A stretch of DNA of 64,000 nt from an uncultured Planctomycetota bacterium (GCA_963849325.1 CAWKHF010000007.1:480001-544000), one strand, 5' to 3'. Counted from the stretch's first letter, positions 8,411 through 63,709 are shown. A program made the numbers and translations. Notes: a model not told the origin generated them from the letters alone.

Positions 8411-9583
8411 ATGGGCAAGACCATCCGCGTCCTCCACGTCCTGGGAGCGTTGAACCGGGGCGGCGTCGAAAACTGGCTCTTGCACGTCCTGCGCAAGCTG
8501 GACCGCGACCGCTTCCGGCTCGACTTCTTGGTCCACACGACTTCCTCCGGCGTCTTCGACGAAGAGATCCGTGCGTTGGGCGGCGCGATCCTGCACTGCC
8601 CGCAGCCCTCGCGGGCGTGGTCGTATGCCCGGCGCTTTCGCCGACTGCTGCGCGAGCACGGGCCGTATGACGTGGTTCACAGCCATGTCCATCATTACAG
8701 CGGCTTCGTGCTGCGCCTGGCGCGGCGAGCGGGGGTGCCGGCACGAATCGCCCACAGTCACACAACATCGGGTGGAGGGTGGAGGGTGGAGGGTGGAGGG
8801 AGAAGAAATACTCTGCACCCGGCGGAGTTATTGCGACAAGGCTATCTTGCCCTCATGAGGTACTGGCTGACGCGCCACGCCACGGTCTGCCTGTCCGCCA
8901 GCCGGCAGGCTCACGAGGCGCTGTTCGGCCCAGCCAACGGCCACGATCAGGGACATCGTGTGCTGCCCTGCGGCATCGACCTGGAGCCGTTTCGAGTGAA
9001 AGTCGATGCGGCCGCCGTCCGGGCAGAGTTCGGTCTGCCGCCGGATGGTTTCGTCCTCGGCCACGTCGGCCGTTTCGCGGCGTGCAAAAACCATAACCTC
9101 CTCGTGGCGATCACCGCCGAGATCCTGCGGCGCATCCCGAACGTCTATTTGCTGCTGGTCGGCGACGGCGAATTGCGATCGGACGTTCGAGCGGGAGGCG
9201 ACCCGGGGAGGAATCCGCGATCGCGTCGTCTTCGCCGGCGCACGGGCCGACGTGCCGCGACTGTTGCAAGGGGCGATGGACGTGTTCGTTTTTCCGTCGA
9301 AATACGAGGGATTGGGGTTGGCGGCGGTTGAGGCCCAGGCCGCCGGCGTGCCGTGTGTACTCTCCGATGCCGTTCCCGCCGAAGCGTCGGTGGTTGCTCC
9401 GCTCGTGAGGCGCGTTCCCCTGTCGCAATCGCCCGGCGAGTGGGCCGATACGATCCTCGCCGTTCGCACGGACGCCCCGCAGTCAGCCGCGAGGAAGCGC
9501 GGGCCGTCCTGGAGAGGAGCCTGTTCAACATTCGGACCAACGTGCGCGAGTTGGAGGAACTGTACGCGACAGGTCCGGGATAG
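8411..9583 (+). CDS. GT4 family glycosyltransferase (frameshifts near 9185 and 9490)
   Basis: AGGAGG ribosome-binding site upstream; RVLHVLGALNRGGVE, GHVGRF…KNH, PSKYEGLGLAAVEAQAAG. Confidence 0.85.
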
Positions 9584-9589
9584 AGTCGG

Positions 9590-10562
9590 GTGACGCTCAT
9601 GATGTCGATGCGTTCGTTCGGCGGCCGGATCGTCCGGCAGGCGTACAAGGTAGGTTACCGTTTTTTCCCGCGTCTGCTCGAACCGGCAGCGCGCGGCCCG
9701 CTCGTGCTGCTGTATCACAGCGTCGAGGACGCCTGCGACGCCTGGACGAACAAGCTCGGCCACAACGTCACGCCGCGCCGCTTCGAGGACCACGTTCGCT
9801 ACCTGACCGCGAACTTCCGCGTCGTCCCGTTCTCGCGCATCTGCCGCCCCGACGCCGCGCCGGACGAGATCGCCATCACCTTCGACGACGGCTCCGCCAG
9901 CATCCGGACGGCGGTGCTGCCGATCATCGAGAAGTACCGCTGTCCCATCAAGGTTTACATCACCACTTGCAACCTGACGGACATCAACTGGCTCAACAAG
10001 CTCTCGTATCTGCTAAATGTGCTCGCCGTGGAAGACCGGAACACTCTCGCGGTCGCCGCCACGGATGCCCCGACACGTTCCGGGAAGGCGGTCGGCGTCC
10101 ATGATTTCGTACATCATTTCGACCCGGAGCGCACGGCAGGGGTGATCGATGAGTGCTTCCGCAAAGTCTGCCGGAGCGGCGCGCGGCGTCTGTATCTGAT
10201 GGAAGAGGAAGTTCGCCGCCTCGCCGCGCATCCGCTGGTCGAAATCGGTTCGCACAGCCGCAATCACTATCCCCTCCCTCGTCTCGGCGCGGCCCAGCTG
10301 CGCGATGAAGTGGTAGAGAATCACCGCGAGCTGAATGGCTTGTTCGAGAACACGGTGGAGGGCTTCGCCATCCCCTTCGGTTTTCGCACGCACTGCACGC
10401 CGGACGTCGTGCAGGTGGTCCAAGAGATCGAACTCGGTCCTTGTGTCGGCCTACGGCGGACGGCTGGATTTGCAGCCGTGCCACGGTCTGCCCGAGGTGA
10501 AGCGAGTTAGTATTGGGGGAAATTTGGGATCGCTGTGGTATCAGATGAGTCATCCGAACTAG
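9590..10562 (+). CDS. Polysaccharide deacetylase (CE4/NodB), frameshift near 10430
   Basis: LLYHSV, ITFDDG, EIGSHSRNH, FAIPFG motifs. Confidence 0.85.
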
Positions 10563-10574
10563 ATCATCGCGGAG

Positions 10575-11927
10575 TTGTGGGACTTCATGTACGCCGTCGA
10601 GCCGAACCAAGACGTTTCCCCCTCCAGCGCCCGCTGGCGCTTCTTCGCGCTGTGCCTCTTCCTGGGGTCGCAGGGCTTCACGCTACCCGTGCTTGCCATC
10701 GGGCCGTCCTGGGCCGTCTGGCCGACCTTGCCGGACTTCGCGTCCATCGTTCTGGGGCTGGTCTGCGTCCTCCCGGATCGTTCGATGCCGCCGGCGCAGC
10801 GGGCGCTCGGTGGCTGGTTCGCGCTGCTGTTCGCCGCTTGCCTGCTGTCGTTTCTTTACATGATCGTCCTGGCGCCTCCGGCCGGCGTGGAGCAGGCGGA
10901 TCGGGCGGTCGGACTGTTCGAGTTGTGCCGGCTGACGCAGTCCCTCGTCATCTTCCGGGCCGCAGCGCGCATTCCTCTGACGCCGCAGCGAACCCATATT
11001 CTCTACGCGCTGGTCACGGCCGTCCTGTGGCTCGTGTGCTTCGGCATCCTGGCCACGTTCTTTCACCTCGTCGAGCCGCACGCCTTGATCCAGCACTTGC
11101 CACAGGATCGGGATGTCCTTGGTGCGTGGTACGGCTACGCGGACGACGAACTGGCGCACGGTTGGGGAGCCGTGGGTTACAACCACGCTTACGGAGCGGC
11201 CCAGGTGCTTATCCTGCTCGCCCTGCAGATGCGTCTTCAGCCCGAACCTCGACCGGCGTTGATGACGATCTCGGTCGTCCTCGCCCTGGCGGCCAGTTTC
11301 CTCAGCGGCAGCCGGGCCGGCTTCGCCGCCGTCGCGGCCTTCATCGTCCTCACGCTCATGCAGCGGCCGGCCTTCGGTCTGCTGGTCCTCCTCGTCGTCC
11401 TGGCCATCGGCTCGCGGATCACTCCCGAGGAGCTGCCGGATGACGTTCGGCAAGTGGTCGAGAGCCAGCGGGCGCTCTCCGACCCGGCCGAGGAGGACAG
11501 CCTCAATGGTCGGACCCAAATCTGGGACAGACACCTGACGTTCCTACGCGCCAATCCGTGGTTGCTGCCGACCGGCGCCGGCTTCGGCTACACCGCCGCG
11601 ACCGGCGATGCGCACTGCCTGTATCTGCAAATCCTGGTCGAGATGGGCGTGCTCGGTTTGCTGCTGTGGGGCATCGTCGCGTTTCAGGTGCTCGCCGCGC
11701 TATATCGGCTGGAGCCGGGACCGCGACCGCTGTTCTGGGCGACGGTCGCATTTCTGTTCTCCGCCGTCACCCAGGAAACGTTTTATCCGGTGGCGGCGCT
11801 GGGCAATTTTCTCGGCCTGTACCTGTGCGGCCTGGCCGTGTCCCTGTCCGACACAAGGGTAGCTCGGACGGCCGATGCGATGACGTGCGCCGAAGGTTCT
11901 TACGAAACGGAGACGTTGGCCTCATGA
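10575..11927 (+). CDS. O-antigen ligase / Wzy polymerase family membrane protein
   Basis: Multi-TM; SGSRAG, GRTQIW, GAGFG…AHCLYLQILVEMG. Confidence 0.8.
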   Translation: MWDFMYAVEPNQDVSPSSARWRFFALCLFLGSQGFTLPVLAIGPSWAVWPTLPDFASIVLGLVCVLPDRSMPPAQRALGGWFALLFAACLLSFLYMIVLAPPAGVEQADRAVGLFELCRLTQSLVIFRAAARIPLTPQRTHILYALVTAVLWLVCFGILATFFHLVEPHALIQHLPQDRDVLGAWYGYADDELAHGWGAVGYNHAYGAAQVLILLALQMRLQPEPRPALMTISVVLALAASFLSGSRAGFAAVAAFIVLTLMQRPAFGLLVLLVVLAIGSRITPEELPDDVRQVVESQRALSDPAEEDSLNGRTQIWDRHLTFLRANPWLLPTGAGFGYTAATGDAHCLYLQILVEMGVLGLLLWGIVAFQVLAALYRLEPGPRPLFWATVAFLFSAVTQETFYPVAALGNFLGLYLCGLAVSLSDTRVARTADAMTCAEGSYETETLAS

Positions 11928-56251: not shown

Positions 56252-56662
56252 ATGGCCGAATCTCACCCCGTGCGCGTCGTCCTCGCCAAGGTCGGTCTGG
56301 ACGGCCACGACCGCGGCATCAAGGTCGTCGCTCGTGCCCTGCGCGATGCCGGCATGCAGGTCATCTACGCCGGCCTGTGGCAGACGCCCGAGGCGGTTGT
56401 GCGCACCGTCGCCGACGAGGACGCTGATTGGCTCGGTCTGAGCCTCCTTAGCGGCGCTCACATGACCCTGGTGCCGCGCGTCCTGCAACTGTTACGCGAG
56501 GCGGGGCTGGAACACGTCGGCGTCCTGGTCGGTGGCATCATCCCCGAGGACGACGTGCCGAAGCTGCGCGAGATGGGCGTGGCCCACGTCTTCGGTCCCG
56601 GCACGGCGCTGCCGGAAATCGTCGCGTTTTTGCAACAGCGCAGCGGAGCGGGCCATGCTTGA
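56252..56662 (+). CDS. Cobalamin-binding small subunit of the mutase
   Basis: GLDGHDRG, SLLSGAH, GGIIP, FGPG. Confidence 0.92.
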   Translation: MAESHPVRVVLAKVGLDGHDRGIKVVARALRDAGMQVIYAGLWQTPEAVVRTVADEDADWLGLSLLSGAHMTLVPRVLQLLREAGLEHVGVLVGGIIPEDDVPKLREMGVAHVFGPGTALPEIVAFLQQRSGAGHA

Positions 56663-57590
56663 GACGCTCCTGGAACGCTTTCGCCGCCGCGACCGCCTGG
56701 CCCTGGCTCGGCTCCTCAGTCTGGCGGCGCGGGGCGAGCAGGTCGAAGACATTCTGACCGGCGTAGGAGAACCCGCGCGGCCGGCCCGCGTGGTCGCCGT
56801 CACCGGCAGCGGCGGCGTCGGCAAGAGCACCCTGATCGGCAAGATGATTGACGAAGTGCGACGCCAGGGGGCGAGCGTGGCCGTGCTCGCTTGCGATCCG
56901 CAAAGTCCGCTGAGCGGCGGCGCGCTGCTCGGCGATCGCTTCCGCATGCCGGCGCGGCCCGACGACGACGGCGTCTTCATCCGCAGTCTGGCCGCCGCCG
57001 GAGGACACGGCGCCCTGGCCGAGCACCTCGCCGTCCTCGTCCGTCTGCTGGAAGCGTTCGGCTTCGACGTGGTACTGATCGAGACCGTCGGCGCGGGGCA
57101 GGGCGATACGGTCGTGCGCGAGTTGGTCGATGTCCTCGTGCTGCTGCTCCAGCCGGAGACTGGCGACGATTTGCAGTGGGAGAAGGCCGGACTGCTGGAG
57201 GTGGCCGACGTCCTTGTCATCCACAAGGCGGACCTGCCCGGCGCCGAGCGCGTCGAGGCGCAGGTGCTGGCGACGCTCGCCCTCGGCACGGCGGCCGCCG
57301 CGCCGGTGCTGCGCATCAGCTCGCGCACCGGGAGCGGACTTGCCGAGCTGTGGCGGACGATCGCCGCGCGGCCGCTGCGCCGCGGCCGACAGAGGAGCGG
57401 CCGCGACCTGCTCCGACTCGCTCAACAGACGTTGGCCGCGCGCTTCGCCGCGGCCGAGGGCGCCGATCGACCGGAGTTACGGCAACTACTGAAACGCTGG
57501 CAGCGCGGTGACATCCCTACCGCCCAGGCCGCCTCGTCTCTTCTCGACCTGCTCCGCGAAGCCACGACTCCCGCCGAACCGCGCCGTTAA
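56655..57590 (+). CDS. meaB: MeaB/ArgK GTPase metallochaperone
   Basis: GSGGVGKST, DPQSP.SGGALLGDR, ETVGAGQ, HKAD. Confidence 0.88.
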   Translation: MLETLLERFRRRDRLALARLLSLAARGEQVEDILTGVGEPARPARVVAVTGSGGVGKSTLIGKMIDEVRRQGASVAVLACDPQSPLSGGALLGDRFRMPARPDDDGVFIRSLAAAGGHGALAEHLAVLVRLLEAFGFDVVLIETVGAGQGDTVVRELVDVLVLLLQPETGDDLQWEKAGLLEVADVLVIHKADLPGAERVEAQVLATLALGTAAAAPVLRISSRTGSGLAELWRTIAARPLRRGRQRSGRDLLRLAQQTLAARFAAAEGADRPELRQLLKRWQRGDIPTAQAASSLLDLLREATTPAEPRR

Positions 57591-58114
57591 TCGCGCGGCT
57601 TGATGACTTTCCGCGGCCGAGCGAAGACCTGCGTGTAGTAAACCTCGCCCTTGTCATTGCGGGCGATGCCCAGGCCCGTTTCCGTGACCTTGTTGCCGAG
57701 CAGGTTCTCGCGGTGAAGCTTCGATTCCATCCAACCCTTGACGATGGCCGTGAGGGGTGCTTCCGCTCCCTCGCTCATGGCGATGTTCTCGCTGACTTTG
57801 CCGTAATCGTAACCGACGGCCAGGACGCGCTGGCCCGGCGTCTTGCCGTCGAGAACGTGTTCCATCTTCCCCTGCCTGGCCATGTTTGCCGAGTGCCCGC
57901 GCGCCGCTCGGAACAAGAGCGTCTGCGGCCGCAGAGGCGGCAGCTTTTCCTTCGCCCGCTCCTGGTTGATTAACTCCAGGAGGGTCCCCTCGTCCTTGCT
58001 CATCTCGACGTGGGCGCCTTCCAGCCTGCCCTTTCCCTTGGCGTCCTCCGCGAAGGCCGTCGAGGCCAAGGCGGCGAAGATCAGGAAGCCAAACGCGGAA
58101 GCGAATCGAATCAT
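57587..58114 (-). CDS. CAP (SCP) domain secreted protein
   Basis: INQER, AARGHS.NM, SENIA, WMES..HRENLL. Confidence 0.88.
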   Translation of the reverse strand: MIRFASAFGFLIFAALASTAFAEDAKGKGRLEGAHVEMSKDEGTLLELINQERAKEKLPPLRPQTLLFRAARGHSANMARQGKMEHVLDGKTPGQRVLAVGYDYGKVSENIAMSEGAEAPLTAIVKGWMESKLHRENLLGNKVTETGLGIARNDKGEVYYTQVFARPRKVIKPRD

Positions 58115-58194
58115 GACAGCACCTCGCCCAAGGTCGATAGGATGGCCGCGAACCAGACCGACCTCCTGTCCCTACGATTGTCGCCCGCGGCATC

Positions 58195-58228
58195 CGCATG
58201 GCCGTTCTGCTGCAGCGACGGGTTCGGC
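58195..58228 (-). other. Truncated attC site (R''/L'' arm only)
   Basis: Minus strand GCCGAAC-CCGTCG-CTGCAGCAGAACGGCCATGCG just after the toxin stop; closely similar to the corresponding arm of the split attC. Confidence 0.7.
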
Positions 58229-58234
58229 AGCCTG

Positions 58235-58594
58235 TCAGAGCGCACTGGGCCGGCGGATGCGGATCGAGCCCGGCGCGATCACGCAGAAGGCTCCGGCCAA
58301 CTCGGCCGCATGGTCCCGAAACAGCTGGGACACGGCCTCCGCCTTCGCTGAGGGAGACAGCCCCGCCAACCGGGTGAGCACGACGCCGCCGTGGATGCGG
58401 CCGAGGCGGTACACTAACTCGCCAAAGTCCTTGTCCGCGGTCACGAGCAGGGCCGACCGCGCGTTGGCCTCGCCGAGCACTTGATCGTCCGTGATGCTCG
58501 GCGCCAGTTCGGCGACGTACACCGTGGCATGGCCATCGGCGCGCAAGCGCTCCACCACCTCCCGCTCAACACTCTCGTCGGCCAGTAAGTTCAT
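58235..58594 (-). CDS. DUF5615 PIN-like toxin
   Basis: LLADESV…DDQVL…LVTADKDFGEL; overlaps the antitoxin stop. Confidence 0.85.
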   Translation of the reverse strand: MNLLADESVEREVVERLRADGHATVYVAELAPSITDDQVLGEANARSALLVTADKDFGELVYRLGRIHGGVVLTRLAGLSPSAKAEAVSQLFRDHAAELAGAFCVIAPGSIRIRRPSAL

Positions 58595-58827
58595 ACCGGC
58601 TGCGGGCTCAAGGGGTAGACTGTGTCAGCCCGCAACGCCTGGGCGGCAAAGGCGAAGGCGGCCAGCACGGCCGGCCGGGTCAGCCGGGGGTGAGCAGCGA
58701 GGATCTGTTCGATAGGCTCGCCGGCAGCCACCTTTTCCAAGATCAACTCCACCGTCACACGGGTTCCGGCGACCACCGGTTTACCCATCATGACGGCGGG
58801 ATCGGAGACAATCAATGGTTCGCTCAT
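58591..58827 (-). CDS. DUF433 antitoxin
   Basis: IVSDPAVMMGKPVVAGTRVTV. Confidence 0.88.
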   Translation of the reverse strand: MSEPLIVSDPAVMMGKPVVAGTRVTVELILEKVAAGEPIEQILAAHPRLTRPAVLAAFAFAAQALRADTVYPLSPQPV

Positions 58828-58996
58828 CGGGGCACCTCCGACCGCCAGTCTACAGCAACCGACGAGCCAAGAGCAAGCGCGGGCCGCCGAACGACACAGC
58901 TCAGATGGGGATGATGCCGGGTTGCTCCCACCGACGACAAGCCGGCGGTATTATGGAGTAACCCAGTAAAAGCCACCCCATCTGGAGCAACCCGAC

Positions 58997-60010
58997 ATGT
59001 CCACCACTCTACCACTGTTCGTCGGACTGGACTACTCCCAACACGCCGTCCAACTGTGCGTCTTGGACCCCACGGGTCAGGTCTTGTGTAACCGCGCCGT
59101 GCCGGACTCCGCCGACGCCATCGATCAGGCCGTCCGGCGATTCGGTGCCGTCCGCGGCGCCGCCCTGGAAGCCTGCACCGGAGCCGCCAACCTCGCCGAA
59201 GAACTCGCCGACCGCTACGCCTGGCCCGTCCACCTCGCCCACCCCGGATTCGTCAGCCGCATGAAACAGTCGCCCGACAAAACCGACTTCTCCGACGCCC
59301 GCGTCCTGGCCGACCTCGAACGGGTCGGCTACCTACCCCGCGTCTGGATTGCACCCCAGCAGCTCCGTGAACTCCGTACCCTGGTCCGCGACCGCCAACA
59401 ACTGGCCGCCCAGCGACGCAACCTCAAGCTCCAGATCGGTGCCCTGCTACGGGAACACCGCCTACGCTGTAGCCACAACCGCTGGACGCGGGCCTGGCAC
59501 GCCTGGTTGGAGCATCAAGCTCAACTGCCCGAACAAGCACGCTGGGTCATGCAACAACGCCTGCGTCGGCTGGCCTGGATCGTCCAGGAGATCCGCACCG
59601 TCGAAGAACGTCTCGAACAAGTCACCGCTGTGGACGGCACCGTAACTTGGCTGCGGACGATCAAGGGCATTGGTCCGGTCACCGCCTGGACGTTGCGGGC
59701 CGAGATCGGTCGCTTCGACCGTTTCCGAACCGGCAAGCAGTTGGCGCGGTACTGCGGCCTGACGCCGTGCAACCGCTCCTCGGGCGTGCGTGAGGCCGAC
59801 GCCGGTTTGATCCGGGCGGCCAATCCCGAACTGCGTCGCGTGCTCATCGAGGCGGCCTGGCTGTTGGCTCGTCTGCAGCCGCGTTGGCGGCAACTGGCCG
59901 AGCGTCTGAAGGCACGGGGCAAACCGAGTACGGTGGTGATAGCGGCCGTGGCCAACCGCTTCGTGCGTTGGTTGTACCACGAAGGAGTCCGCCAACAGGC
60001 GGCGGCCTGA
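58997..60010 (+). CDS. IS110 family DEDD recombinase/transposase
   Basis: VGLD, LEAC, KTDFSDA, IKGIG, YCGLTP…SSG. Confidence 0.93.
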   Translation: MSTTLPLFVGLDYSQHAVQLCVLDPTGQVLCNRAVPDSADAIDQAVRRFGAVRGAALEACTGAANLAEELADRYAWPVHLAHPGFVSRMKQSPDKTDFSDARVLADLERVGYLPRVWIAPQQLRELRTLVRDRQQLAAQRRNLKLQIGALLREHRLRCSHNRWTRAWHAWLEHQAQLPEQARWVMQQRLRRLAWIVQEIRTVEERLEQVTAVDGTVTWLRTIKGIGPVTAWTLRAEIGRFDRFRTGKQLARYCGLTPCNRSSGVREADAGLIRAANPELRRVLIEAAWLLARLQPRWRQLAERLKARGKPSTVVIAAVANRFVRWLYHEGVRQQAAA

Positions 60011-60330
60011 CGGATAGTGACAAGGCGTTGTCATTGTCGGGGGAGTTCCTGAGCGGTTGCGGGTGTGCTCGGCCGGCTGCTGGGGTTTAATCCTCGCGCT
60101 CAGATGGGGCAGCCCGCAACCTTTCTTCGCATCCCATTTGGGCAGGGTCTTGAACCCACGCTCGGATAAGAAGCATGGGAGCCCCAACAGCGTCGGCGTC
60201 CTGCCGAAGATTTCGCCGCCTCCGTGCGGCGACCAGGGGCGCTCATTGCCGCCCCCTGGACCCCCGGCTAGCCTCTCTCTGTTCCGGGAGGAAGAGAGGA
60301 GACTAACGCCGAGAAAAGGTGATTTTGCTC
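60011..60330 (+). ncRNA. Predicted bridge/seekRNA of element 1 (boundaries approximate)
   Basis: 60072-60081 is antisense to the right flank; 60098-60109 is identical to the left junction. Confidence 0.6.
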
Positions 60331-60518
60331 TTGACGAGTGGCCTGGCATCATAGAAGCAGCCGGCTCACGCGGGAGGAGGCGTGATGTCGCGCGAAACCG
60401 TTAGTCGCGTGGCCGGTCTGCCGCAGCGACTGGATACTCATGAAGGCTCTTGAAGCACACTTGAAGGAGACAGCACTCAGCCGCTGTCTCCTTCACCTGC
60501 TAACAACGAGAGGTCTTC

Positions 60519-61568
60519 ATGCGCTACTTCCAACCTACACCTGACACTCGATTCTATGCCGGTGTCGATCTCCACGCCAGATCCCTCTTTCTTGTTGTCC
60601 TCGACCACACCGGACAGATTCGCTACGCACGCAATCTCCCCGCCGCACCCCAGCCCTTCCGCAAAGCCATCACACCTTTCCGCGATGGACTCGTCGTCGG
60701 CTGCGAGTGCATGCACTGCTGGTACTGGCTGGCCGACGCCTGCCGCGACGACAACATCCCCTTCCGGCTCGGACACGCCTGGGCAATGAAAGCCGTCCAC
60801 GGCAGCAAGACCAAATGCGACCGTAAAGACGCCGAGGCCATCGCCCACCTGCTCAAGGGCGGCAACTTCCCGCTCGCCTATGCCTACCCCAAAGAACGAC
60901 GTGGACTCCGCGACCTGCTCCGCGCACGCCTCCGCCTGGTCCGCCAACGCGCCGAACTCTACGGACACGTCCACACCGCACGACGACAGCTCAACTTGCC
61001 GCCCATCTCCAACGATGTCAAATACAAGTCCAAGCGTGCCAGCGTCCTGGCCGACATCGACGACGACTGCGTCCGTCGCCGCGTCGAGGCCGACCTGTCG
61101 CTGCTGGAGCCGCTCGATACCACCATCCGACGACTGGAGAAGGACATCGAGGTCGCCGCACGACAGCACTATGCCACCGAGATGGCCGTGCTGCAATCGA
61201 CACCCGGCGTCGGCCTCGTCATCGCCCTGACCATCCTTTTGGAGATCGACACCCTCGAACGCTTCGACACCCGCCAACAGTTCTGCTCCTATGCCCGGCT
61301 ATGCGGCGCCCGCCAGGAGTCGGCCGGCAAGAAGGTGGGCACGGGCAACGCCAAGCAGGGCAACGCCTGGCTGAAGTGGGCCTTCTCCGAGGCGGCCGTA
61401 CTCAGCGCCCAGAAGAACGAACGCATCGGCCAGTACCTGGACAAGCTGTCGGGCCGTCTGGGCCAAGCCAAAGCCTTGTCGGCATTGGCCCACAAGCTGG
61501 GACGAGCCTTCTACCACATGCTCCACAAAAAGGAGGTCTTTCAGATCGACCAATTCCTGAGACACTGA
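60519..61568 (+). CDS. IS110 family DEDD recombinase/transposase, clearly different from element 1
   Basis: AGVDLH, GCEC, KCDRKDA, PGVG, SYARL…ESAG. Confidence 0.93.
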   Translation: MRYFQPTPDTRFYAGVDLHARSLFLVVLDHTGQIRYARNLPAAPQPFRKAITPFRDGLVVGCECMHCWYWLADACRDDNIPFRLGHAWAMKAVHGSKTKCDRKDAEAIAHLLKGGNFPLAYAYPKERRGLRDLLRARLRLVRQRAELYGHVHTARRQLNLPPISNDVKYKSKRASVLADIDDDCVRRRVEADLSLLEPLDTTIRRLEKDIEVAARQHYATEMAVLQSTPGVGLVIALTILLEIDTLERFDTRQQFCSYARLCGARQESAGKKVGTGNAKQGNAWLKWAFSEAAVLSAQKNERIGQYLDKLSGRLGQAKALSALAHKLGRAFYHMLHKKEVFQIDQFLRH

Positions 61569-62170
61569 GAAGCCAGGGCGCGGCCGGCGAGCCGAAGCCG
61601 AACGGGAGCCGCTACGGGCTAACCCTTACGACGACCCCCACCATCCAGGGAGCATCGACTCCGCAGTGGGGGTCCGGGACCGCCCAGGCATCCAGCCGCT
61701 TTGATGGGACGCCGGCCGCGTCCGTATTATTTCGACCGCGGTGGTCGCAAAAACAGGCCGCGATCCGCCGGTGGGTCGGGGGACCAACGGGATCAGCGTA
61801 ACGCTGTCCCAAGGAATCGGGCTTGGCTTTGAGCCATCCCACGTCCTCCCGACCCCCGCCAGACCGCGACCCGTGATCGCAAGGAGCCATTCGCCCGGAC
61901 GATCCGCCCCAGTCGCCAGCCTGGCCGAACGGGACGCTCCTTTGGGGGAGTGAGCCAGTCGCTTTTTGAATGGCGGCGAAGCTGGGAACGTATGAATATC
62001 GGGACCGGCCAGGGCAGGTTCCCTGGCACAGCCGCCTGGTCCTTCGGGTCTGGGCCGCCGGAGTCCGCATGAGTGTTGGGTGCGGTTCGCCTCGGCCGTG
62101 GGCCGAAGGTGTTCCGCGTCCGTCGCTGATATCCAAGCCGGATCGCCGAGGACGATTGCTCACTGCCGCT
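61569..62170 (+). ncRNA. Predicted bridge/seekRNA of element 2, with two target-like modules and one donor-like loop
   Basis: Repeated GCCGAACGGGA…CCAG(C/T)CGCTTT; ATGAGTG at 62069 and TATCCA at 62130 match the element ends. Confidence 0.6.
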
Positions 62171-62361
62171 GCAACCTTGTTCGGTCATCCTTCCGGCAAG
62201 AAAAACGCCGGAGATACCCGTTCCCGTGGAAAATATTTTTACTTGACACCAAGAGCCTTATGAGTGCAACCTTGTTCGGTCATCCTTCCGGCAAGAAAAA
62301 CGCCGGAGATACCCGTTCCCGTGGAAAATATTTTTACTTGACACCAAGAGCCTTATGAGTG
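62170..62361 (+). repeat. Exact tandem duplication with a 95-bp period
   Basis: 62170-62266 equals 62265-62361, overlapping at TG. Confidence 0.95.
62243..62266 (+). promoter_or_regulatory. -35 box at the IS right end that would form a promoter on circularisation
   Basis: TTGACA at 62243 (copy at 62338); joining the ends places GATACT from the left end 17-18 bp downstream. Confidence 0.55.
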
Positions 62362-62473
62362 TTCGGCGTCTGGTGTATTGTCGCTGACTCCCGCCGAACG
62401 ATAACTAAGTTAGTCGCTGGGTGACGAACAATAAATCCTCTCTCGTCCATCCCTTCCGCTTTGCTCTTGGAGC

Positions 62474-62800
62474 TTACTTACGGTAGCCCTGTCTCTTTAA
62501 CTCATCATTTATCAAGCGCCTATTCGCATCTTTACGTTCCCTTTCATTCCTATCCTCCATCCATTTTAACGTCTCTCTCCACTTTTTTTTCTCCTTCTCC
62601 GTCTTCTCCGCCTGTTCTGCTGCTTTCTCCTGCTGACGTTTTTTTGCCGCCTCCTCCCTCTCTTTACTCTCTCGCTCGATTCTCTCCTGTTCTACGGGTT
62701 GATTCAACCATATGCCGATCAAAGCTATCGGCACTATCGTTAATAAAGTAAATACGACCCCTCGACCCCATGGTGTCGGTGAATCACTCGTCTTATTCAT
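62474..62800 (-). CDS. Hypothetical protein (one TM plus charged coiled coil), low GC, possible cassette gene
   Basis: 108-aa ORF, purine-rich leader, same strand as the attC sites. Confidence 0.6.
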   Translation of the reverse strand: MNKTSDSPTPWGRGVVFTLLTIVPIALIGIWLNQPVEQERIERESKEREEAAKKRQQEKAAEQAEKTEKEKKKWRETLKWMEDRNERERKDANRRLINDELKRQGYRK

Positions 62801-62826
62801 ACCTACTACCCCCTGCTGTCGCCGAG

Positions 62827-62970
62827 TTACTGATCATTGCGCAAAGAAAGTTAAGTTTCTTACAGCTTGCCTTTCAGGTCGAAATCCTCAGCGATTCCCG
62901 CAGAAAGCAACGATTTCGGCCCCAAATTCACCCGGAAAAAGTTTAACATTCTTTGCGCAACGGTCAGTAA
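62827..62970. mobile_element. MITE-like element
   Basis: 28-bp terminal inverted repeats (62827-62854 / 62943-62970, 3 mismatches); too short to encode a transposase. Confidence 0.65.
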
Positions 62971-63418
62971 GACTAGAATGTGCTTGCGCACTTGGACCAT
63001 CCCCGGATTTCACTCCCCCGACGCTGAGGATTCAAGCGAAATCCTTTTATCCTCAATAAATGCCCTGTGCTTATCAGAGCCACAAGCCGATCGCACAACC
63101 GTCTGAGAAACATCCGGTCCATTTGAGCGTGCCATGTGGAGTAATTGCCGTTAGCGTGTCTGTGTCACCCACACCCGCCAGGTCTCTTCCTGATCGTTTC
63201 CGCCCAAATGCTGGGCCTCCTGCCGTTCCCCGTGGGTTTCCGGAACTATACGCTTGTCACCCTCGCCCCGTGAGCGCCTACCTCAGGGCAACGCTGTGGC
63301 ACAAGACGCACATGTTCCCCCACACCGTTCCAGTAGTGTGAAGGTCAGGCTGATGCCCGTCTCGATGGCGAAGCCCGTCCTGTCGCCGAAGACCACCGCC
63401 ACAGGAATGCCCTTCTTC

Positions 63419-63437
63419 GCCGAACAACTGATTAGAT
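63419..63437 (-). other. attI-like site
   Basis: Minus strand ATCTAAT-CAGTT-GTTCGGC has the same L-5bp-R layout as attI1 (CCCTAAA-ACAAA-GTTAGGC). Confidence 0.5.
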
Positions 63438-63447
63438 CGCGCACATC

Positions 63448-63566
63448 GCGCAATCTAGCACGGCTGCTGCGCAACCTAGCAAGGGGCTGCGCGATCTAGC
63501 AAGGGCGTGCGCGGCCTAGCACGGCTGCTGCGCGACCTAGCAAGGGGCTGCGCAGACCTAGCACGG
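63448..63566. repeat. Six direct repeats with a 20-21 bp period (GCGC..[C/T]CTAGCA[A/C]GG)
   Basis: CTAGCA at 63455, 63476, 63496, 63516, 63537 and 63558. Confidence 0.9.
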
Positions 63567-63664: not shown

Positions 63665-63709
63665 CGTTTGGTAGGATGGGTCGAGGGACGAGACCCATCC
63701 TACCAAACG
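63665..63709. repeat. GTAG-type REP hairpin
   Basis: GTAGGATGGGTC…GACCCATCCTAC, 18-bp inverted repeat. Confidence 0.85.

Follow-up and report, generated by a model that had tools for sequence, protein, structure and literature searches.

Among the insertion sequences (IS) of the IS1111 type, ISPst6, ISPa21, ISKpn4 and ISPa25 are described as IS1111-attC elements, inserting near the 5' end of attC and antisense to the cassettes (PMC3001079). ISKpn4, ISPst6 and the 46 % identical ISPa25 share one attC position (PMC11187229), the transposases of ISPst6 and ISPa21 fall into one clade (PMC3001079, summarising Tetu & Holmes 2008), and the attC-targeting IS1111 elements presented in these two sources, known from clinical and Pseudomonas integrons, are all located at one position (PMC11187229, PMC3001079). 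For the attC-targeting ISKpn4 and ISPst6, dependence on a seekRNA has been shown experimentally (Siddiquee et al. 2024, PMC11187229). According to the same source, IS1111 elements have subterminal inverted repeats with short asymmetric extensions and a longer non-coding region downstream of the transposase gene that encodes the guide RNA; in their seekRNAs the complement of the top strand is placed 5' of the complement of the bottom strand (PMC11187229). We report on a DNA stretch of 64,000 nucleotides from an uncultured Planctomycetota bacterium (GCA_963849325.1, CAWKHF010000007.1:480001-544000), in the following the window, in which positions 58886-62367 are a single attC-type site cut into three pieces by two IS1111-type elements of the IS110 family, E1 and E2. 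In our labels the window is G000:C7:480001-544000, with G for genome, C for contig and L for retrieved locus. The assembly is 84.7 % complete and was studied together with 150 other genomes of the order, a comparison set of 151 genomes. Cytochrome domains of planctomycetes were found nearby, in agreement with the origin.

The pieces of the site, the two elements and their genes were located as follows, with the supporting evidence in brackets.

58886..58904, minus strand: attC piece 1 (flanks of four E1 copies; family alignment; profile score of the restored site)
58905..60355, plus strand: E1, IS1111-type element, 1451 bp (four full copies with 98-100 % identity and identical junctions)
58997..60010, plus strand: E1 transposase, 337 aa (PF01548, E 5e-20; PF02371, E 9e-25)
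60356..60432, minus strand: attC piece 2 with the inner L' arm, variable centre and L'' arm (profile match C7:540356-540451, E 4e-16; alignment)
60433..62359, plus strand: E2, IS1111-type element (C12 copy 99 % identical over query 1-1834; clade-wide junctions)
60519..61568, plus strand: E2 transposase, 349 aa (PF01548, E 2e-11; PF02371, E 6e-17)
62170..62359, plus strand: perfect tandem copies of the 95-bp right end of E2 (repeat search, 100 % identity)
62362..62367, minus strand: attC piece 3, TTCGGC (junctions; family alignment)

In cassette orientation, piece 1 is the 3' end of the site, made up of the R' box, which reads GTTCGGC on the minus strand, together with a spacer and the outer part of the L' arm. 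It is closed by the left copy of the E1 core dinucleotide AG at 58903-58904; the second copy opens piece 2 at 60356-60357. Piece 2 is 77 nt long and ends with the left core TG of E2 at 60431-60432, and TTCGGC of piece 3 together with G62361 forms the R'' box (GCCGAAC in cassette orientation). The proposal of one attC split by two different IS110-family elements goes back to a preliminary description of the window, and element ends, copies and the score of the restored site agree with it. The TG that it placed at E2 beside the R'' box was recovered in both copies, 60431-60432 and 62360-62361. Two of its details had to be corrected. The core of E1 (58903-58904, 60356-60357) is AG rather than AGA, because uninterrupted family members read AGCTCAG-CAGCCGG, and the restored site measures 100 bp instead of ~103 bp: an exact excision takes out 1453 nt for E1, and in addition E2 with one TG. 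We scored the restored sequence with a profile trained solely on 27 uninterrupted sites of this genome, the restored site itself being left out. The 100-bp site obtained 77.8 bits (E 2e-21 at genome size), 9 bits above the 103-bp version (68.7 bits), within the range of the family's own scores on this profile (49-87 bits) and compared to 1.8 bits for the best of 200 shuffles. Thus the rejoined sequence, proposed earlier as the test case, scored as a member of the local attC family. Its hairpin was calculated at -28.2 kcal/mol (DNA parameters) versus -20.8 +/- 2.8 for shuffled sequences.

The site belongs to a family. A profile made from the genome's own sites matched 50 places at E<=0.01, and these ~50 attC sites are spread over 10 of the 14 contigs, mostly single or as same-strand pairs or triplets 600-850 bp apart. 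The alignment of the 27 uninterrupted sites revealed conserved ends, GCCGAAC and GTTCGGC, conserved outer arms and a variable centre, while the inner stems occur in at least two alternative sequences, the paired arms changing together.

Both elements have the features of the IS1111 group: a DEDD transposase of ~330-350 aa with the two domains PF01548 and PF02371, subterminal inverted repeats and the longer non-coding region downstream; the two transposase genes in 58886-62367 are of the IS110 family. In E1 the 8-nt repeats are ATGATGCC (58911-58918) and GGCATCAT (60345-60352), the extensions outside them being 6 nt on the left and 3 nt on the right; the non-coding parts measure 92 nt upstream and 345 nt downstream of the gene. 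Three other full copies of E1 are present in the genome (98-99 % identity, query 1-1450). All four copies have a left flank of GCCGAAC, 4-5 nt and AGCTCAG, and a right flank of CAGCCGGCTCACGCGG, the variable centre, CGCGTGGCCGGTCTGC(C/T)GCAGCG, 3-4 nt and GTTCGGC, the part after the variable centre including ..GGCCGGTCTGC(C/T)GCAGCG. The copies are 98-100 % alike and the four site centres strongly different, so the elements came recently into pre-existing, diverged sites. The exact 14-mer target was found in the four occupied copies and in one unoccupied attC at C5:750906. Twelve relatives of E1 from other species (47-82 % identity) target mostly other sequences, some of which are other palindromes. 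Two of them occupy the sub-site of E1: the 82 % relative in locus L074 is inserted in an attC with a profile match of E 3e-16, and the 62 % relative in L082 has an attC-like flank of GACCTAAC, 6 nt and GGCTCAG on the left and TTGCCGG on the right. A 59 % relative in genome G103 (contig C1, L034-L050, 14 copies) was observed in inverted pairs ~2.5 kb apart, always in ..CGACTGT-AG-GACTAG, a motif resembling the terminus of some other repeated element.

E2 represents a different lineage, as the preliminary description had supposed: the transposases of E1 and E2 share 27 % identity. Its canonical length, with one TG counted in, is 1834 bp; the window copy has 1929 bp and is 95 bp longer. The subterminal inverted repeats of ~15-16 nt lie at 60438-60453 and 62345-62359, and the spacing of 7 nt left and 3 nt right outside the repeats fits in E2 relatives if the core is counted. 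Non-coding are 86 nt upstream and about 700-790 nt downstream of the gene. One other full copy is present in the genome (C12:879971-881804, 99 % identity, query 1-1834 of 1929) with the flanks ...GCAGCGCC-TG-IS-TTCGGC, besides a C5 remnant with an internal deletion and a relative of 86 % identity that is truncated at its 5' end; the flanks within the genome follow ..GCAGCG-NN-TG-IS-TTCGGC. The flanks of other copies, which the preliminary description had suggested to inspect, were attC, with sub-site and orientation unchanged, for four of four E1 copies and for two full copies and the remnant of E2. The surplus 95 bp of the window copy are a tandem duplication of the right end (62170-62264 equals 62265-62359), absent from the full copy on C12, and this copy of E2 therefore has two right ends. 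The duplication begins at a TG inside 62163-62184, a stretch resembling the attC target of E2 itself; slippage, or a self-directed recombination followed by a deletion, are possible origins.

Relatives of E2 (43-89 % amino acid identity) were present in 14 of the 150 other genomes of the order, some at a distance of 1-3 kb from integrase matches, e.g., G104:C18 and G027:C10. Among 16 loci with a left flank, 13 have an attC-profile match abutting the element in the orientation of the transposase, and by eye 14 read ..GCAGCG-NN-(T/G)G followed by GATAC..; of the other two flanks, one consists of tandem repeats and one is unclear. The former is locus L057 (G105:C172), where GAGTGAGTTGG-like tandem repeats and no attC form the left flank. 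Matching of inverted repeats located a right end for one of 11 relatives, a motif search then for four, and the right junctions in these four loci read ..GAGAGC-GG-TTCGGC. The closest plasmid relative (48 %) comes from Alteromonas and is inserted at the same spot of a canonical attC with CACCTAAC...GTTAGGTG, antisense to the neighbouring genes; the left flank of a plasmid relative from Vibrio was not clearly attC. None of the named IS1111-attC members was among the 244 plasmid records matched at E<=1e-6.

The naming of the arms depends on the direction of the cassettes, for which we used genes identified by Pfam instead of a guess based on the G+C content of third codon positions (GC3). Such genes adjoining the sites were all opposite to the profile orientation: three in the window (DUF433, DUF5615, CAP), seven of seven elsewhere in the genome (RelE, two DUF433, DUF5615, DUF2262, a Schlafen-like gene and a sub-threshold PIN) and one of one, a SUKH gene, in the array of genome G009, where it was the sole Pfam match among 28 open reading frames (ORFs) tried. 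The GC3-based guess beside 37 sites gave 8 opposite and 6 same on the left and 5 opposite and 3 same on the right. The integron integrase gene (intI) of relatives was opposite to the sites in all seven integrase loci with matches. Since the plus strand of the site is opposite in direction to the cassette genes and to intI, the cassette top strand is the minus strand of the window, which assigns the R'' (5') end to E2 and the L' (3') arm to E1. The assignment of R'' and L' in the preliminary description is thus upheld. Both elements are antisense to the cassettes. E2 and its clade share with the IS1111-attC elements the fixed position near the 5' end of attC and the antisense direction; E1 is antisense as well, but in the 3' (L') arm and so away from the 5' position.

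The integrase loci of relatives characterise the sites further. An integrase above the TIGR02249 cut-off was present in 72 of the 151 genomes, and immediately downstream of these integrases the attC profile gave matches in 7 of 14 loci examined, from several genera. The arrays are regular, on the same strand, spaced by 350-1000 bp, and begin right after intI; G009 holds 31 same-strand sites in 18 kb in an array that ends beside intI. We regard the sites as real attCs because the same profile finds same-strand arrays beside bona fide integron integrases of relatives. In the genome of the window, a 196-aa open frame at C5:71041-71631 (L005 13041-13631) has two PF13495 stretches (E 6e-24) and no catalytic domain. 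It matches positions 1-83 of the integron-integrase model, lies ~4 kb from one attC cluster on the side where intI is expected, and judged by its sequence is likely a remnant of the genome's own integron integrase. A 353-aa candidate on C10 was rejected, its domains being an ordinary Phage_integrase and SAM_1.

Candidate guide RNA segments were located in the downstream non-coding regions of both elements.

60059..60117, plus strand: predicted target-binding stem-loop of the E1 guide RNA, seekRNA/bridge-RNA type (exact abutting matches; shuffles; covariation)
60160..60179, plus strand: second conserved non-coding module of E1, GCTCGG followed by a near copy of right end and core, ATAAGA-AG (relatives)
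61597..61603, plus strand: candidate right-target guide of E2, GCCGAAC, antisense of G+TTCGGC (clade-wide conservation)
62069..62080, plus strand: E2 module ATGAG-TG-TTGGG (last 5 nt of the right end, TG, near copy of the right flank)

In E1, 10 nt of core and right flank have their exact reverse complement in the right-target guide GCCGGCTGCT (60072-60081), and the left-target guide GCTCAG (60098-60103) is a sense copy of 6 nt of left flank and core, followed by ATGGGG, the left end of E1. Depending on the count, the sense match has 6-7 nt; both guide matches abut the insertion point. Matches of this quality were reached by 2 of 5000 shuffles of the non-coding region. The order is that of IS1111 seekRNAs, with the complement of the top strand 5' and that of the bottom strand after it. 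The guides change with the target: the 59 % relative in G103, on CGACTGT-AG-GACTAG and not on an attC, matches this target at both homologous guide positions, and the same covariation was seen by eye in L075, L076 and L082. An alignment of 11 sequences yielded a consensus fold in which two stems close an internal loop and the guides face each other across it; compensatory changes were present in 9 of 24 predicted pairs. The second module is kept as GCTCGGATAGAAG in relatives with right ends ..CATAGA-AG and may be a donor-binding segment.

In E2, where a top-strand match alone was found, the candidate guide 7-mer is situated just past the stop codon and is kept at this place across the clade; a sub-clade has a second GCCGAAC copy, in the window at 61924-61930. 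Deviating targets are mirrored: the Alteromonas relative has GCCTAAC at the first position and the flank TG-TTAGG, the 86 % relative CCTAAC at the second copy and the flank GG-TTAGGG. Across eight relatives, the 5-nt part of the module at 62069-62080 follows five different variants of the right end. CAGTCGC (61910-61916) was considered as a left guide and rejected; it is complementary to the left flank in the window, but has the same pairing strand as the right guide and mismatches the C12 site.

We conclude, with a probability of roughly 0.85, that the site is a genuine attC of a planctomycete type into which two unrelated IS1111-type elements inserted independently, each guided by an RNA from its own 3' non-coding region. 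This is based on the observed element ends, the attC identity, the repeated use of the sub-sites and the guide-target covariation. The split attC would then be part of a small cassette cluster without integrase. E1 would recognise ~14 bp, GCTC-AG-CAGCCGGC on the plus strand, a stretch of the L' arm that is separated from the R' box by 10 nt, and recombine at AG. The target of E2 would be the R'' end, ..GCGAC-TG-TTCGGC on the plus strand, with recombination at TG, overlapping the last base of the R'' box. The triplet at this insertion point is the conserved GTT/AAC, the integrase crossover of canonical attCs. E2 belongs to a large clade for which the R'' spot is the landing place in attCs of planctomycetes and, as far as examined, in at least one of a gammaproteobacterium. 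For both elements a guide RNA would be made and bound by the transposase and insertion would proceed via a circular intermediate.

Several observations weigh against this conclusion. The attCs of this genome are scattered singly or in twos and threes in a genome without an intact integron integrase, the best candidate reaching 85 bits versus the TIGR02249 cut-off of 265 in an assembly that is 84.7 % complete. In the general attC consensus, R'' is RYYYAAC and R' is GTTRRRY; the end boxes GCCGAAC/GTTCGGC deviate from it at one position, although the AAC/GTT triplets are present. An integrase locus of the same genus (G100, 19.5 kb examined) and six more integrase loci with flanks of <=1.5 kb had no attC-profile match. 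In positions 57000-63500 no Rfam family was matched at the E-value threshold. For E2, RNA guidance is only partly supported, because no left-target guide was found in the compared non-coding regions of E2 and its relatives and the 7-nt right-target match, with two candidate copies, was reached by 385 of 5000 shuffles and is alone not significant; the term RNA-guided in the preliminary description thus holds well for E1, by guide-target covariation, and in part for E2. Neither an RNA nor a circle junction nor an empty site was seen. Public runs contained <=0.15 of the sampled words; four of them (contigs only) had short pieces of E2-type relatives and, in one soil run, a few exact pieces, but no excision or circle joint, and these short contigs give no evidence either way.

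An origin of E1, the 77-nt attC piece and E2 as one inherited or composite unit is improbable. In favour of such a unit is locus L074 from another organism, where the E1-type element of 82 % amino acid identity, an attC piece ending ..GCAGCGACTG and an E2-type left end occur in the same order, hence the same double occupancy. Within the genome of the window, however, the elements occur apart: E1 was seen without E2 in three other attCs, no E1 accompanies the other full copy of E2, and the left flank of the C5 remnant of E2 lacks E1 too. Window and L074 have different centres in the attC piece, and the E2-type left end of L074 diverges after ~14 nt and resembles a different member of the clade. 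For these reasons we take the double occupancy as a recurrence and not as a travelling composite. With ~50 attCs, four E1 and three E2 occupancies, ~0.24 co-occupied sites are expected at random, and more if the sites with both targets alone are considered.

Even less credit is due to a recognition of the folded attC hairpin by the transposase, with the matches in the non-coding regions being incidental. Both targets lie within a structured palindrome, and the match of E2, 7 nt long, weakly significant and without a left guide, would suit such a mechanism. Against it, E1 relatives on unrelated, partly non-palindromic targets change both guides in step with their flanks while the stems are conserved, and the 7-mer of the right target and the module matching the right end covary in the E2 clade; moreover, seekRNA dependence has been demonstrated for ISKpn4 and ISPst6 (PMC11187229). 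Least probable of all is that the palindromes are other extragenic repeats favoured by IS1111 elements, as ISPa11 is one of the members reported to target repetitive extragenic palindromes (PMC11187229). The scattering of the sites, the lack of an intact IntI and the presence of some E1 relatives in other palindromes speak for it, yet regular same-strand arrays right after above-cut-off intI in several genera, the fixed orientation in which the sites bracket single small genes and toxin-antitoxin-like pairs, and the IntI N-terminal fragment near one cluster speak against it.

A third IS110-family element of ~1.95 kb was observed at C5:67226-69176 (L005 about 9217-11177), with a long non-coding region upstream of its transposase gene. 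It abuts the attC that holds the E1 copy C5:65707-67156 and interrupts this attC after ..CTGCTGCA, of which the missing end is imitated by the left terminus of the element itself. The second copy (C1:444191-446138, 99.5 % identical) is located within an array of ~37-nt repeats resembling CRISPR.

The guides of E1 were set to attC separately, because the relatives of its lineage have many different targets. As a tentative extension, which we hold to be somewhat less probable than its converse, the planctomycete attC could be a shared landing pad for several unrelated RNA-guided IS110-family lineages with separately set guides and sub-sites of their own (the R'' box for E2, the L' arm for E1, and that of the third IS110-type element) and with recurrent double occupancy, E1 being the first one off the classical sub-site. 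A literature search, which did not include two founding papers, retrieved no paper on attC-targeting IS that use another sub-site or occur in planctomycetes. New in this case are the sub-site of E1, the recurring double occupancy and the natural series of guides; its E2 side is ordinary.

Until both elements leave, the split site would be unusable by an integrase: with the R'' box 3.4 kb from its partner and the L' arm cut, the hairpin for the integrase presumably cannot form, and the cassettes on both sides would stay fixed. Such a blocking would have no current effect here, because the assembly has no intact integrase. Experimental evidence on the disabling of attCs by insertions is described as limited (PMC11616780). 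If insertions do disable attCs, cassettes could be frozen, and this might help to explain the scattered attCs without integrase in this genome. Through the large clade of E2 the attC-targeting habit extends to planctomycete integrons, and an unrelated lineage, E1, has its guide RNA set to a different part of the same attC. The 11 natural guide regions of the E1 type, with guides and targets changing together, are material for testing the programming rules of seekRNAs.

Two further features adjoin the split site.

58235..58827, minus strand: DUF433/DUF5615 (PIN-like) gene pair of the cassette that lies downstream of the split attC (Pfam matches with E 3e-20 and 2e-22)
58143..58228, minus strand: next attC, short and divergent (profile match; left limit by eye)

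The gene pair, also present between attCs at another place in the genome, looks like a toxin-antitoxin pair in a two-gene cassette. The next attC contains the 'half site' of the preliminary description (58195-58228), which does match the attC profile (C7:538195-538236, model positions 72-113), if weakly (E 5.8e-4), and as part of a shorter, divergent attC. To the right of the split site, the cassette from 62368 onward is low in G+C and had no Pfam match; ~20-61-nt tandem repeats (GCTGCGC..CTAGCA..) and a perfect 18-nt inverted repeat were observed in this low-G+C stretch at 63448-63553 and 63665-63709. A single GCCGAAC box without a recognisable attC around it is located at 57573-57579, 8 nt past the stop of a CAP-domain gene on the minus strand (57587-58114). 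A MeaB-like GTPase gene (56532-57590, plus strand) comes next, and this is therefore the probable end of the cassette cluster. GTTCGGC occurs 41 times in the window versus 19.7 times expected.

Among known systems, attC clusters that have no integron-integrases (CALIN) and lone attC sites (Cury et al. 2016, PMC4889954) resemble this genome in being small and integrase-less, with toxin-antitoxin-like and unknown small genes; it differs by ~50 sites over 10 of 14 contigs, mostly singletons or pairs, with an N-terminal fragment as the sole trace of an integrase. Group IIC-attC introns are likewise described as a mobile lineage specialised on attC and inserting near the 5' end (PMC3001079), but they are retroelements with a different mechanism and without sequence relationship to E1 or E2. 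To the IS1111-attC group E2 is alike in position and layout, that is, in subterminal repeats, a long 3' non-coding region, a fixed R'' position, antisense direction and no duplication beyond the shared core. It differs in its host phylum, Planctomycetota, in the attC type GCCGAAC/GTTCGGC and in a much longer 3' non-coding region with two copies of the candidate guide. E1 differs more from this group, by its sub-site in the L' arm, its 27 % identity to E2 and its relatives, which are mostly on targets other than attC. The elements with a seekRNA or bridge RNA, ISEc11, ISPa11 and IS621, are matched by E1 in the guide order and in the placement of the guides on opposite sides of an internal loop, the RNA of E1 being predicted from its sequence. 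The natural retargeting described for the pair ISEc11 and ISXne4 (PMC11187229) is likewise found among the relatives of E1.

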